64,000 nt of DNA from an uncultured beta proteobacterium (GCA_963750805.1 CAVVSV010000015.1:7468-71467); one strand, 5' to 3'; positions 1,788 to 63,198 are shown, numbered from the stretch's first letter. The notes: a model not told the origin generated them from the letters alone. Translations and numbers: made by a program.

Positions 1788-2705
1788 TCAGCTCAGGATC
1801 ACACTGCTCAAGCGTCTGCGGTAGGTGGCCACTGTGGGGTCGGCGGGGGGGATTTGGCCATCGGCTACCTTCACGGCAGGCGGTTCGATGATGTCCAGGA
1901 TGGCGATGAAGGTCTTGCGGGCCTGGTCGCTGTTCCAGGTTTTGTCGCGCATCAGAATTTCCAGCAACTCGTCCATGGCGGCGGTCCATTGCTGGGCAGC
2001 CATCAGCACCTGGGCTTTGCCGAAGCGGGCCTCAAAATCACGCTTGTTGGTGGCAATCTTGGCGTCAAAACTGCCGACTGTCCCCGTCAGGTCTTCATTG
2101 TTAGCTACTGAATCGATAGCGTCCATCCATCGCTGCAGGGAATCGAACTTGCGCACCAAACCTGTTTTGGCAATCACCGGGGCAAAGTTCACTTTGGCCT
2201 GGTCGACATCGGCGTCACGGCCGGTCAGCAGCAAAAACTTGATGTAGTCGAAACGCGCTGTTTCGTCGTCCGGGTTTTTCAGAACGGCCTGATGCAGGGC
2301 TTCGCGCATGGCGTCGGGGTCATCCGCGGAGGGAGCGTCTGAGAGTTCAACACCCGTCACCTCGGCTTCCAGCACATCGCCCTCAGGCACGTGTTTGTCC
2401 AGAAACGCCTTGATTTGCCCTTCCGGCAAGGCCCCGGTGAAGCCGTCCACCGGCTTGCCGCCCATCATCAGGACACAGGTGGGGATGCTGCGGATGCCAA
2501 AGGCCTGGCTCAACTCCTGCTCCTGGTCCGAATCAATCTTGACCAGTTTGAAGCGCCCGGCATATTCGGTCTCAATGCGCTCCAGCAGGGGACCAATCAC
2601 CTTGCACGGGCCACACCAGGGCGCCCAGAAGTCGACCAGCACGGGCATCTGCATCGACGCGGCAACCACCTCGTCATCAAAATTTTCAACGGTAACGTTC
2701 ATCAT
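1788..2705 (-). CDS. thioredoxin-domain co-chaperone, YbbN/CnoX-like (Trx fold plus C-terminal TPR-like domain)
   Basis: N-terminal thioredoxin fold with a WCGPC active site, followed by a roughly 190-aa helical repeat domain. Confidence 0.85.
   Translation of the reverse strand: MMNVTVENFDDEVVAASMQMPVLVDFWAPWCGPCKVIGPLLERIETEYAGRFKLVKIDSDQEQELSQAFGIRSIPTCVLMMGGKPVDGFTGALPEGQIKAFLDKHVPEGDVLEAEVTGVELSDAPSADDPDAMREALHQAVLKNPDDETARFDYIKFLLLTGRDADVDQAKVNFAPVIAKTGLVRKFDSLQRWMDAIDSVANNEDLTGTVGSFDAKIATNKRDFEARFGKAQVLMAAQQWTAAMDELLEILMRDKTWNSDQARKTFIAILDIIEPPAVKVADGQIPPADPTVATYRRRLSSVILS
2079..2120 (-). repeat. dispersed tripartite 42-nt motif, copy 1 (in ybbN-like gene, sense)
   Basis: GCTAT CGATTCAG TAGC TAACAATGAAGACCTGAC GGGGACA. 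Confidence 0.6.
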
Positions 2706-2756
2706 GTGGGGAATCTCAAGTAAGCAGGTCGGGGTGAAAAAGTAAAATTAAAGCCT

Positions 2757-3251
2757 ATGAAAACTATTCAAATCGGCGTCGTCATGGGTTCCCGGTCCGA
2801 CTGGGACACCATGCAGCATGCAGTGCAGATTCTCCAACACTTCGGAATTCATCACGAAGCCCGGGTGGTCTCGGCCCACCGCATGCCGGACGACATGTTC
2901 GCTTACGCGGAATCCGCTGCGGGCCGCGGCCTCAAAGCCATCATCGCGGGTGCGGGGGGCGCAGCCCATTTGCCGGGCATGCTGGCCGCCAAAACCACGG
3001 TGCCCGTGCTGGGTGTGCCGGTTGCCACCAAACACCTGCATGGCGTGGATTCCCTGCACAGTATTGTTCAAATGCCCAAGGGTATTCCCGTCGCCACGTT
3101 TGCCATTGGCGATGCAGGTGCTGCCAATGCTGCGCTGTTTGCCGTGGCTATGCTGGCCAATGAAGATGCCGAGCTGCGCACACGGCTGGAGGCTTTCCGC
3201 GCTGCGCAAACGCAAACCGCCCGCGACATGACGGTGCCGCCTGCGCTATGA
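2757..3251 (+). CDS. purE: N5-carboxyaminoimidazole ribonucleotide mutase
   Basis: 164 aa with VVMGSRSDW and GAGGAAHLPGM signatures. It sits immediately upstream of purK. Confidence 0.95.
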   Translation: MKTIQIGVVMGSRSDWDTMQHAVQILQHFGIHHEARVVSAHRMPDDMFAYAESAAGRGLKAIIAGAGGAAHLPGMLAAKTTVPVLGVPVATKHLHGVDSLHSIVQMPKGIPVATFAIGDAGAANAALFAVAMLANEDAELRTRLEAFRAAQTQTARDMTVPPAL

Positions 3252-4528
3252 AGACGTTGACGAAAGCAGTGCGCAAGCCAAAGGCCCTGCCCCCGATCCT
3301 TCCGGGCCTGGCTGGCAACGGCCAGCCGGTGACGCTGGGCGTGATGGGCGGCGGTCAGCTGGGCCGCATGTTCGTTCACGCCGCGCAGGCCATGGGCTAT
3401 GGCACGGCGGTGCTGGACCCGGACGCCGGCAGCCCGGCGGGGCTGGTCAGCCACCATCATGTTCAAACGCCTTACCTGGACCCTCAAGGTCTCGACGCGC
3501 TGGCAGACGTCAGCGCTGCCATCACCACCGAATTCGAGAACGTGCCTGCCGCCGCCCTGCTGGCGCTGGCGGAAAAACGTCCGGTGGCTCCTGCTGCGGC
3601 GGCGGTCAGCATCGCGCAGGACCGCGCCGCCGAGAAAGCGCATTTCGTACGCTGTGGTGTGCCCTGCGCACCCTACGCAGTGATTGAAACCTTGGCGCAA
3701 TTGCAAGCCGTCCCTTCGGATTTGTTGCCCGGCATCCTTAAAACCTCGCGCATGGGCTACGACGGCAAAGGTCAGATTCGCGTCAATAGCCGCGCTGCCT
3801 TGGCGGCTGGGTGGGCAGAACTCAAGGGCGTGCCCTGTGTGCTGGAGAAGATGCTGGCGCTGCAATCGGAGTGCTCGGTCATCGTGGCGCGCGGCCAGGA
3901 CGGACAGTGCGTCAATTTGCCGGTGCAGCTCAACACCCACCGCGAAGGAATTCTCGCCTTCACCGAGGTTTACAAAGGAAATGTGCCACTAGTCCTTGCT
4001 AAACGGGCGATTGTTGCTGCACTTTCGATAGCAAATGAATTGCAGTATGTGGGTGTGTTGTGCGTCGAATTCTTCGTCCTGCAAGACGGTTCCAAAGACC
4101 AGAAGGCCATCGGCAGCCTTGTGGTGAACGAGATCGCTCCCCGTCCGCACAACAGCGGCCACTACAGCCAGAATGCCTGTGACGTGTCCCAGTTTGAGCT
4201 GCAGGTGCGCACCCTGGCGGGCCTGCCGCTCACGCAGCCGCGCCAGCACAGCCCGGCCATCATGCTTAACCTGCTGGGCGACATCTGGCCAGCGGGCGGC
4301 GCGCAGAGCCCGCTGTGGAACAAGGTGCTGGCGCTGCCCGGCACCCATCTGCACCTGTATGGCAAAAGCAAAGCCAGCAAGGGCCGCAAGATGGGGCATC
4401 TGAACATTACGGGCACCACTTTGGCCGATGTGCGGGCTACGGCAGCCCGAGCGGCCAAAATTTTGGGCATCAAGGCGTTTTCGCAGTTGGCGGTCGCTGT
4501 TCCCTCACCGGTCAAGGCCGCTCGGTGA
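3248..4528 (+). CDS. purK: N5-carboxyaminoimidazole ribonucleotide synthase (ATP-grasp)
   Basis: GVMGGGQLGRM N-terminus and an ATP-grasp body. The ATG overlaps the purE stop (ATGA). Confidence 0.9.
   Translation: MKTLTKAVRKPKALPPILPGLAGNGQPVTLGVMGGGQLGRMFVHAAQAMGYGTAVLDPDAGSPAGLVSHHHVQTPYLDPQGLDALADVSAAITTEFENVPAAALLALAEKRPVAPAAAAVSIAQDRAAEKAHFVRCGVPCAPYAVIETLAQLQAVPSDLLPGILKTSRMGYDGKGQIRVNSRAALAAGWAELKGVPCVLEKMLALQSECSVIVARGQDGQCVNLPVQLNTHREGILAFTEVYKGNVPLVLAKRAIVAALSIANELQYVGVLCVEFFVLQDGSKDQKAIGSLVVNEIAPRPHNSGHYSQNACDVSQFELQVRTLAGLPLTQPRQHSPAIMLNLLGDIWPAGGAQSPLWNKVLALPGTHLHLYGKSKASKGRKMGHLNITGTTLADVRATAARAAKILGIKAFSQLAVAVPSPVKAAR
4016..4057 (+). repeat. dispersed tripartite motif, copy 2 (purK, sense; weak 3' block)
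   Basis: GCTGC ACTTTCGA TAGC AAATGAATTGCAGTATGT GGGTGTG. Confidence 0.35.
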
Positions 4529-62654: not shown

Positions 62655-62672
62655 TGAGGGGATTTTAACGCC

Positions 62673-63152
62673 TCAGTCGTCGTCATGTGTCCCTGCAACA
62701 ACCTTGCGGATCACTTCACCCCCGAACCCTCGGGCGGCCAGAAACCGCATCTGCTTGCCGCGCTCAGCCGGTCCTGCCTGGACATCGGCTGATTGGGTGC
62801 CAAACTTGCGTTGCCAAACCTCACGGGCGCGCGCCAGCTCGGTGCTTTTCAGCCCGGCCACAGCCTCAATCACGGCGTCGCGATCCAGCCCTTTGCCCTG
62901 CAGTTCCTGGCGAATTCGCGATGTACCCAGCTTGGCTGAGCGGCGGTTGATGACCGACTCAATCACCCGCGCCTCGCTGATGAAGTCTTTCGCCTGCAAC
63001 TCATCCAGCGCTTTGGCCAGCTCGCCTGGGGCTTCTTCATACGATTGAAGCCGACGTTCCAGCTCGGCGCGTGAATATTCGCGCCCGCTGAGCAGCCGCA
63101 GGGCCCGGCCTTTCAGTGATGGCTGCGCTGGCGGGATATTGGTTGGATGCAT
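62673..63152 (-). CDS. recX: recombination regulator RecX
   Basis: 159-aa helical-repeat protein directly downstream of recA. Confidence 0.85.
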   Translation of the reverse strand: MHPTNIPPAQPSLKGRALRLLSGREYSRAELERRLQSYEEAPGELAKALDELQAKDFISEARVIESVINRRSAKLGTSRIRQELQGKGLDRDAVIEAVAGLKSTELARAREVWQRKFGTQSADVQAGPAERGKQMRFLAARGFGGEVIRKVVAGTHDDD

Positions 63153-63156
63153 GAAT

Positions 63157-63198
63157 GCTACTGATTAAATAGCAAACTATTCATATCTGGCAGGGACT
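63157..63198 (+). repeat. dispersed tripartite motif, copy 14 (recX-recA intergenic, reaching the recA stop codon)
   Basis: GCTAC TGATTAAA TAGC AAACTATTCATATCTGGC AGGGACT. Confidence 0.7.

Follow-up and report, generated by a model that had tools for sequence, protein, structure and literature searches.

A 64,000-nt stretch of DNA from an uncultured beta proteobacterium (GCA_963750805.1, CAVVSV010000015.1:7468-71467; hereafter the window, meaning the whole stretch) contains AT-rich patches that were originally predicted to be at least 14 copies of one dispersed 42-nt motif, made up of three blocks at fixed spacing and found inside genes as well as between them. The locus raises the questions of what this element is and of how a signal that turns out to be 69 bp long was imposed on the essential proteins TsaB, MoaC, PurK, UvrA and ArgC. 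The window was analysed together with about 1.4 Mb of scattered related loci, a sample that includes no complete carrier chromosome.

We could confirm that the dispersed motif represents one real family of elements whose blocks keep a constant spacing. When up to two mismatches were allowed, GCTAY-N8-TAGC-N18-GGGGACT matched 10 sites in the window, against 0.02 expected. The block GGGGACT alone is not enriched there (11 observed, 6.9 expected), so the signal lies in how the blocks are combined at an unvarying distance. A position weight matrix (PWM) derived from the unambiguous copies recovered all 14 of the predicted copies, exactly 14 sites in the window (Table 1), and none in Markov shuffles. 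On a 69-column PWM, the scores are bimodal: the 14 copies score from 18.5 to 73.6 and the rest of the window everywhere below -5, and the top scores in 20 shuffled windows fell between -28 and -13. Three sites near positions 2738, 46104 and 37629 that had been suspected to be further partial copies did not rise above background, with ungapped scores of -37 to -50. The plus strand carries ten copies, one fewer than first counted, and the minus strand four. Relative to the open reading frames (ORFs), eight run in the sense direction and three in antisense (within PurK, the ORF at 44681-46192 and the giant adhesin), and the remaining three lie, or probably lie, between genes; the three antisense copies agree with the earlier count, and its nine sense and two intergenic copies do not. 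At least 10 of the 14 are within genes of recognised families or long ORFs, the recognisable housekeeping hosts being tsaB, a family-4 uracil-DNA glycosylase gene, uvrA, moaC, argC, purK, a tsaC/sua5-type gene, a thioredoxin-domain gene and an EamA transporter gene. The in-gene copies use three different reading frames and hence no protein motif is involved.

Table 1. Copies of the element in the 64,000-nt window, with the position of each site in the PWM scan and its score on the 69-column PWM
Feature	Coordinates	Strand	PWM site	PWM score	Context
Copy	2055..2123	-	2079	53.7	Sense in thioredoxin/TPR-type gene 1788-2705(-), aa 196-209
Weak copy	3967..4035	-	3991	25.6	Antisense in purK 3248-4528(+); encodes LVLAKRAIVAALSIA
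Weakest copy	5169..5237	+	5172	18.5	Sense, linker of TsaC/Sua5-type gene 4315-5574(+); GAG in place of TAG at motif positions 14-16
Copy	8875..8943	+	8878	60.1	Sense in tsaB 8463-9215(+), aa 139-153; no indel relative to homologues; orthologous copy in the related VAR_45 (locus L015)
Copy	9891..9959	+	9894	37.8	Variable N-terminal linker of family-4 uracil-DNA glycosylase ORF 9741-10589(+)
Copy	13477..13545	-	13501	37.9	Sense in EamA-type transporter gene 13009-13959(-), central loop; ortholog in L015
Best copy	31598..31666	+	31601	73.6	Antisense in 4351-aa ORF 19567-32622(-)
Copy	36619..36687	-	36643	57.1	Sense in uvrA 34394-37732(-), highly length-variable loop; ortholog in L078
Copy	43951..44019	+	43954	49.6	Between divergent bepA-like (-) and moaC (+) genes; upstream of the start of BepA homology (aa 78 of a long ORF)
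Copy	44417..44485	+	44420	61.2	Sense in moaC 44069-44656(+), aa 118-131
Copy	45039..45107	+	45042	46.6	Antisense in membrane-protein ORF 44681-46192(-)
Weak copy	61826..61894	+	61829	28.1	Sense in argC 61646-62581(+), aa 62-75
Intergenic copy	62610..62678	+	62613	63.7	Between the 3' ends of argC (+) and recX (-)
Intergenic copy	63154..63222	+	63157	67.3	Between recX start and recA stop, both genes (-)

Though the unit was predicted to be 42 nt long, the conserved sequence is 66-69 nt. A pattern scan for TAGCWAAYWAT-N9-ACGGGGACT, made with one genome per species, returned at least 77 loci holding more than 130 copies of the element. Among the matches listed, nearly all were from the Burkholderiales metagenome-assembled genome (MAG) VAR_45, from HGW-Betaproteobacteria-3 or from MAGs labelled Rhodoferax or Polaromonas; four were chance matches in Firmicutes, three of which have one conserved sequence in common. 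When the related copies were aligned, conservation was found to begin about 3 nt before GCTAY and to extend to about position 66, where it drops sharply to background. The element opens at its 5' side with a palindrome of about 21 bp, the head (tTGCTAY-nnAWTnn-RTAGCwA), which a scan with half of the matrix detected in both orientations at identical places, and the 3' part is an asymmetric arm of about 45 bp which, in the version of the element that we call dialect 1, reads AACTATT-N7-TTGACGGGGACTT-N-AGGC-N3-TTT. Apparent 'orphan' 5' halves were mostly mirror readings of the palindrome. At one locus (L051, ~7344-7372), a palindromic head, TTTGCTACTGAATAAGTAGCAAA, has no recognisable 3' arm in either orientation, and the head module can thus stand alone.

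The 68 copies that lie outside the search-pattern selection give the consensus ttGCTAc..AtT.aaTAGC.AActAtt.a..attgACGGGGACTt.aGgCc.aTTT and an information content of approximately 52 bits. By our own arithmetic, the frequency of sites in the window (14 per 128,000 positions) requires about 13.2 bits. According to an argument attributed to Schneider, a surplus of information reportedly reflects reading by more than one factor or else descent from a common template, and a content of about 52 bits where some 13 are needed hence points to templated copying or to multiple readers.

The element acts at the level of DNA and independently of orientation. No Rfam family covers it, either at the gathering threshold in the window or at permissive E-values in 18 related loci, and a tRNA scan found none. 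RNAalifold predicted no pairs for 70 dialect-1 copies or for 35 copies of a second dialect described below. As noted in the original prediction, the GCTAY/RTAGC dyad does not covary: 82 % of its cells pair compared with 81.6 % in shuffles, and its sole variable pair is without covariation. A central helix is visible in some dialect-2 copies, again with covariation not above that of shuffles. Spacing and the relative orientation of neighbours were counted in related loci containing 140 copies in 511 kb, 74 of these copies having been chosen by the search pattern. For orientation to genes, the genes of related loci were called with a home-made codon-score heuristic. Within coding sequence 11 copies are sense and 14 antisense. 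The 23 intergenic copies comprise 12 that are antisense and five that are sense with respect to both neighbouring genes, five located between convergent genes and one between divergent ones. The distances between copies range from 265 to 18,121 nt with no regularity, and no pair is closer than 265 nt. The lack of RNA structure and covariation, the random orientation and the absence of close pairs together rule out a promoter or leader, a polar signal like Chi or the FtsK orienting polar sequences (KOPS), and doublets of the kind formed by repetitive extragenic palindromic (REP) sequences, known as REPINs. Polarity of the Chi or KOPS type was rejected on the strand counts, 10 plus and 4 minus in the window, and 34 neighbouring pairs in the same orientation versus 32 in opposite orientation in the related loci. 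Promoter patterns of the sigma-70, sigma-54 and extracytoplasmic function (ECF) types, which were sought by eye, were set aside in view of the random orientation to genes and the lack of a conserved -10 box at a fixed distance. A site for integration host factor was also considered; a match to WATCAANNNNTTR occurs in the dialect-1 consensus, but conservation is poor at its key columns.

The same element is present in Rhodoferax- and Polaromonas-like genomes, and we recognise dialects 1, 1b, intermediate and 2. Dialect 2 comes from 80 metagenome loci that encode more distant relatives of TsaB (47-62 % identity). It has equal length and the same architecture, with a different centre (ttGCTAT-gATTTyA-RTAGC-TGCTTGCGCmCGT...GGGCTagaGCC..ATTTGAt.c.tAAa). 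Copies of it were found in 25 of the 80 loci and none in the other 55, and the element is therefore limited to certain lineages of the Comamonadaceae. In the intermediate forms at three loci (L087, L088 and L127), the centres end in ACGAGGGCTAGAGGC, an example being TATTCACGCAGTATTGACGAGGGCTAGAGGCC from L088, and the end of the motif is GGGGGAT in HGW-Betaproteobacteria-3 and ACGGTGACA in a Polaromonas MAG. Copies within one genome have a common, lineage-specific centre. Among isolates, the dialect-2 consensus matches plasmids of Polaromonas naphthalenivorans CJ2 and Rhodoferax antarcticus, in which matrix scans located two and six copies, respectively. The literature that we searched, on the core sequence and on uptake sequences and repeats in the Comamonadaceae and Burkholderiales, contains no description of this element family. 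One repeat known from Polaromonas, Rhodoferax and other Betaproteobacteria, BRE, is sometimes found in genes, is GC-rich and about 90 bp long and occurs in tandem arrays (Hot et al. 2011, PMC3110155). The published BRE sequences bear no resemblance to the element and this identity was rejected.

Certain places recur across these genomes, namely the position directly upstream of tsaB, the glycosylase linker and the site within the TsaB gene. In the copies upstream of tsaB, the tsaB ATG belongs to the element's ATTTGATGCC. An ATG at element positions 56-59 is then the start codon of the downstream gene, with AGG or GAG about 8 nt upstream of it. This arrangement was seen for tsaB in many dialect-2 loci (L084-L160) and for approximately eight genes of VAR_45 (in L009, L024, L030, L038, L040, L056, L063 and L077); hence, the sense copies seem to have been co-opted as translation start regions.

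Where it could be judged from alignments, the in-gene copies proved to occupy pre-existing sequence at equal or near-equal length and were not added as extra DNA by transposition. In TsaB, 60 homologues align without gaps through the copy, typical Comamonadaceae having YEFNSGLWTQHEGYSLIRPE at the place of HYQFKSKLFTIDGDYRLIRPE in the window, and the segment appears to be about as long as that of E. coli TsaB. The antisense copy in PurK aligns gaplessly with a homologue of solved structure (PDB). In MoaC, the site of the copy is occupied in the ortholog from HGW-Betaproteobacteria-3 by GC-rich sequence that is longer by 3 nt, and the flanks match at most positions while the motif stretch differs. 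A miniature element inserted into coding DNA, one of the roles first proposed, is at odds with a length that is unchanged in TsaB and PurK and differs by 3 nt in MoaC. Neither terminal repeats nor target duplications were found in the aligned copies, and conservation stops at the borders of the element. The copies are shown by their locations to sit where change is tolerated, in protein loops, linkers, gene ends and intergenic spacers.

The in-gene TsaB site was compared in 68 loci, and most of the sequences score -50 to -100 on both the dialect-1 and the dialect-2 matrices. In one subclade the dialect-2 matrix, whose training set included no TsaB-site sequences and whose maximum in 200 kb of shuffled sequence is 0.7, gives scores of 26-39. 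A further two relatives are hybrid (47/38 and 25/24), and on dialect 1 scores of 60-69 were obtained for the window and VAR_45. The DNA at this site is also graded, one relative having the 5' half only (GCTACGAATTTAATAGCGAACTAT), the next having in addition ATTGACGGGGGAT, a near-complete 3' half, and the window having the full motif. The site matches the dialect of its own genome, from which it would follow that a coding site has been retuned to the consensus of its genome. On this evidence, the TsaB site is a case of apparent concerted evolution that simple vertical decay of ancient copies does not explain. Judged from aligned genes, the motif columns are moreover shown to be constrained beyond the protein sequence: when orthologs of tsaB, the EamA gene and uvrA were compared between the window and VAR_45, 4 of 31 third-codon positions in conserved motif columns had changed, compared with 375 of 1085 other third positions in the same genes (odds ratio 0.28, p = 0.012). 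The true length of the element, its spread through the family, its dialects and the concerted change at orthologous sites all lay beyond the view of a single sequence from which the original prediction was made.

The copies are not evenly distributed. The stretch of the window from 46 to 61.6 kb has 51-54 % GC, compared with about 60 % elsewhere, and contains no copies; it is probably an acquired island. It encodes a pilus/secretion ATPase of the MshE type (GAF+MshEN+T2SSE, 48563-50983(-)), a CHASE2 adenylate/guanylate cyclase (51781-54033(-)) and a TPR protein. The 13-kb adhesin ORF includes only one copy, in antisense orientation. A 31.9-kb linear 'plasmid' of R. antarcticus (NZ_CP019241.1; L164/L197) carries six dialect-2 copies in 19 kb, all in one orientation, each of them between toxin-antitoxin, Fic, IS1634 or hypothetical genes in a layout like that of a cassette array; the annotated record of this replicon includes no integrase. 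On pPNAP01 of P. naphthalenivorans CJ2 (L163, 20001-21424), two direct dialect-2 copies flank one 'ATPase' gene, which sits between pglX and pglW in a BREX-2 (Pgl) defence operon. The idea of a cassette or recombination site to which these two arrays gave rise was rejected, close pairs elsewhere being direct in 12 cases and inverted in 14. An integron attC site was also rejected, as by our own reading the aligned copies include no R''/R' boxes (RYYYAAC/GTTRRRY), there is no consensus fold and the copies lie among housekeeping genes. In viral contigs, a scan for dialect 1 gave two chance matches within one conserved gene, and a scan for dialect 2 gave 32 contigs, some with true copies and some with look-alikes encoding lipoprotein signal peptides. 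In three of the latter (L167, L176 and L187, from IMG/VR), the DNA that encodes phage lipoprotein signal peptides (e.g. ..IAACA..LAGC) mimics the palindromic head and TGCTTGCGC of dialect 2, and such mimics are a source of false positives in pattern scans.

We tentatively favour, at somewhat less than an even chance, the explanation that the element is a 66-69-bp signal in duplex DNA that is recognised by a protein, spreads by in-place conversion or biased substitution and resembles an uptake signal. A symmetric protein, probably a dimer, would recognise the palindromic head on duplex DNA, and the arm would be read through further contacts or by partner proteins. New copies would arise, and old ones would stay alike, via template-directed short-patch conversion and/or biased fixation of substitutions. 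A protein-binding site was among the roles first proposed, and the conservation of the palindromic 5' module without covariation speaks for that part of the proposal; the binder itself is putative. As to the role, our leading specific guess is a tag by which a species marks its own DNA as 'self' in uptake or recombination. To our knowledge, genome-wide signals that build up within genes by substitution and have dialects are known in two bacterial families only, the DNA uptake sequences (DUS) of the Neisseriaceae and the uptake signal sequences (USS) of the Pasteurellaceae, both tied to natural transformation, and it is because only uptake signals are known to evolve in this way that a 'self' tag would lead.

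Among known systems, a signal of the DNA-uptake type comes closest to the behaviour seen here, i.e. build-up in place within genes, dialects and random orientation. Like DUS and USS, the element is dispersed in either orientation, also inside conserved genes; its in-gene copies appear to originate by substitution at tolerant positions (in TsaB, MoaC and PurK); related lineages have dialects and retain orthologous sites; and at least one foreign-looking island has few or no copies, although the toxin-antitoxin-rich R. antarcticus replicon and some provirus contigs do carry them. As in USS, a GC-rich core lies between AT-rich tracts. The element resembles uptake signals in its comparative features though not in shortness.

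Several points count against this explanation. Known uptake cores are 9-12 bp long (about 30 bp in the extended USS), and an element of 66-69 bp and about 52 bits is far longer. Its head, unlike DUS and USS, is palindromic, and its density of about 1 per 4.6-8 kb is below the approximately 1 per kb of DUS and USS. Copies in accessory DNA, including the toxin-antitoxin-rich R. antarcticus replicon where they are frequent, pPNAP01 and some provirus contigs, weaken the case for a tag confined to the core genome. The direction of change at the TsaB site was taken from the outgroup majority and not from a tree, the third-codon test draws on three genes, and the UvrA copy, in a hypervariable loop, and the glycosylase (UDG4) copy, in an Ala/Pro-rich linker, lie where length varies regardless and are hence uninformative on insertion. 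The binder, the uptake bias and the conversion mechanism are, throughout, what we infer from sequence comparison.

A classical uptake signal that arose by point mutation alone, in which a competence receptor at the surface or in the periplasm prefers motif DNA, improving mutations are over-transmitted and the motif accumulates where it is tolerated, is rather unlikely, though a real possibility. It would account for the indel-free build-up in housekeeping genes, the graded matches at the TsaB site, the lineage dialects and the random orientation, and also for the scarcity of copies between divergent genes (1 of the 23 intergenic copies), the lack of copies in the low-GC island and the presence of copies in or beside uvrA, the uracil-DNA glycosylase gene, recA and recX. 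It is hard to reconcile with approximately 52 bits over 69 bp, a content several-fold above the reading of any known uptake receptor and about fourfold the requirement set by the site frequency, with a palindromic head that is foreign to DUS and USS or with the dense copies in an accessory replicon rich in toxin-antitoxin genes. The literature searched documents no competence in these bacteria, and the only pilus-type ATPase in the window is within the copy-free island.

We consider it unlikely that the copies form an array bound by a protein that organises the chromosome or acts as a global regulator, each site being maintained through ordinary selection for a host function such as nucleoid structure, segregation or topology. 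A head conserved without covariation is what a dimeric helix-turn-helix protein on duplex DNA would be expected to leave, the sites lie in and between genes in either orientation, the motif columns are conserved at silent positions, and the head is kept family-wide while the arm varies. The palindromic sites of parS, Noc, SlmA and matS likewise arise in place within genes, and their specificity co-evolves with the protein; unlike the element, they are 12-16 bp long, occur in tens of copies per genome and lack an asymmetric arm of 45 bp. The information content is also far above the need for one site per 5 kb, and the moderately conserved columns between the strong blocks resemble shared descent, not independent selection. 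No precedent for a 69-bp site at such density is known to us, and the irregular spacing shows no positional pattern.

A bolder version of templated spread, which we regard as improbable, is that existing chromosomal DNA is overwritten, with its length kept, by a fixed lineage-specific sequence of about 69 nt that is copied from a template. Other copies, or a master copy, might serve as this template, the donor being, e.g., single-stranded DNA or derived from RNA. Such overwriting would seed at partial matches to the head and could reach essential genes, and it would amount to the genome-wide 'writing' of a signal, distinct from transposition and from a drive by point mutation.

There is a similarly slim chance that the element is a selfish mobile repeat, of the REP/REPIN, miniature inverted-repeat transposable element (MITE) or recombinase-site type, whose in-gene copies are in-frame insertions that were later trimmed. 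Its size and information content are typical of mobile repeats, the dyad holds GTAG/CTAC as REPs do, and by our own reading the palindrome with its 7-bp AT-rich spacer resembles the core site of a tyrosine recombinase. The six same-orientation copies that part accessory genes in R. antarcticus, the two direct copies around the BREX-2 ATPase gene and the copies in provirus contigs would fit as well, as would the loop with the UvrA copy, which appears to be 19 residues longer than in the E. coli sequence. However, insertion would have to leave TsaB and PurK unchanged in length and MoaC altered by one codon, with neither terminal inverted repeats nor target duplications and with conservation ending at the borders. 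Inverted doublets and pairs under 265 nt are lacking, close neighbours are not enriched for direct orientation, the dyad lacks covariation, and the ORFs between close pairs, read by eye, were ordinary genes and included no transposase.

None of the known repeat families of this kind corresponds to the element, and the earlier view that it is not a REP or bacterial interspersed mosaic element (BIME), Chi, KOPS or attC held, the defining features of each having failed. REP/REPIN-RAYT systems, including BIMEs, are similarly short and abundant chromosomal repeats, mostly at gene ends, with GTAG, that are lineage-specific and long-lasting; unlike them, the element is not confined to extragenic DNA, has no stem covariation or inverted doublets and, in the in-gene copies tested, takes the place of sequence that was as long or nearly so. 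No RAYT gene turned up in the loci sampled, where the ORFs between close pairs were examined by eye and no Y1-transposase search was run. Rickettsia palindromic elements and in-frame MITEs are also repeats in coding genes, in different frames and at surface loops, but the Rickettsia elements are insertions of 100-150 bp that lengthen the protein. The Neisseria dRS3 repeats, part of the Neisseria intergenic mosaic elements (NIMEs), share a short inverted repeat with an AT-rich spacer, hundreds of dispersed copies and, in places, variable gene-sized segments that are flanked by copies. They differ in being 20 bp long and intergenic, and the present element is linked to no integrase or phage junction.

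A transcribed element (small RNA, leader or riboswitch, promoter or terminator) is highly improbable, as the use of AGG or GAG with the ATG as the start of tsaB and of the VAR_45 genes and the TTGAC-like hexamers in the arm stand against the absence of a consensus structure, covariation, an Rfam family and a -10 box at a fixed distance, and against random gene orientation with many antisense in-gene copies.

If the favoured explanation of an uptake-like signal holds, the Comamonadaceae, which are abundant in freshwater, soil and cold environments, would provide a third case beyond the DUS and USS families, and sequence-biased uptake, or another 'self-tag' system, would become testable outside the two known families. 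The palindromic head offers a concrete bait for the cognate protein. The dialects are lineage markers for the binning of metagenomes, and the AT-rich patches account for odd local composition and for unusual peptide segments in conserved proteins.

Some further features of the loci were noted. In VAR_45, a full-length match to the Rfam family istR (RF01400) at L075 6745-6866(-), with 41.6 bits against a gathering threshold of 45 and E = 6e-5, lies near an orphan palindromic head. In the window, a 489-aa ORF at 6997-8466(+) is without a family match and overlaps the gene for a PBP4-type carboxypeptidase (5917-7389(-)). This ORF is probably not a gene, in which case tsaB may have a real upstream spacer. 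The 4351-aa ORF adjoins a gene for an outer-membrane transporter of the ShlB/FhaC type (32668-34305(-)) and an ORF with a LapA-like retention module (18131-19576(-)), and the region 18131-34305 looks like a giant-adhesin secretion locus.

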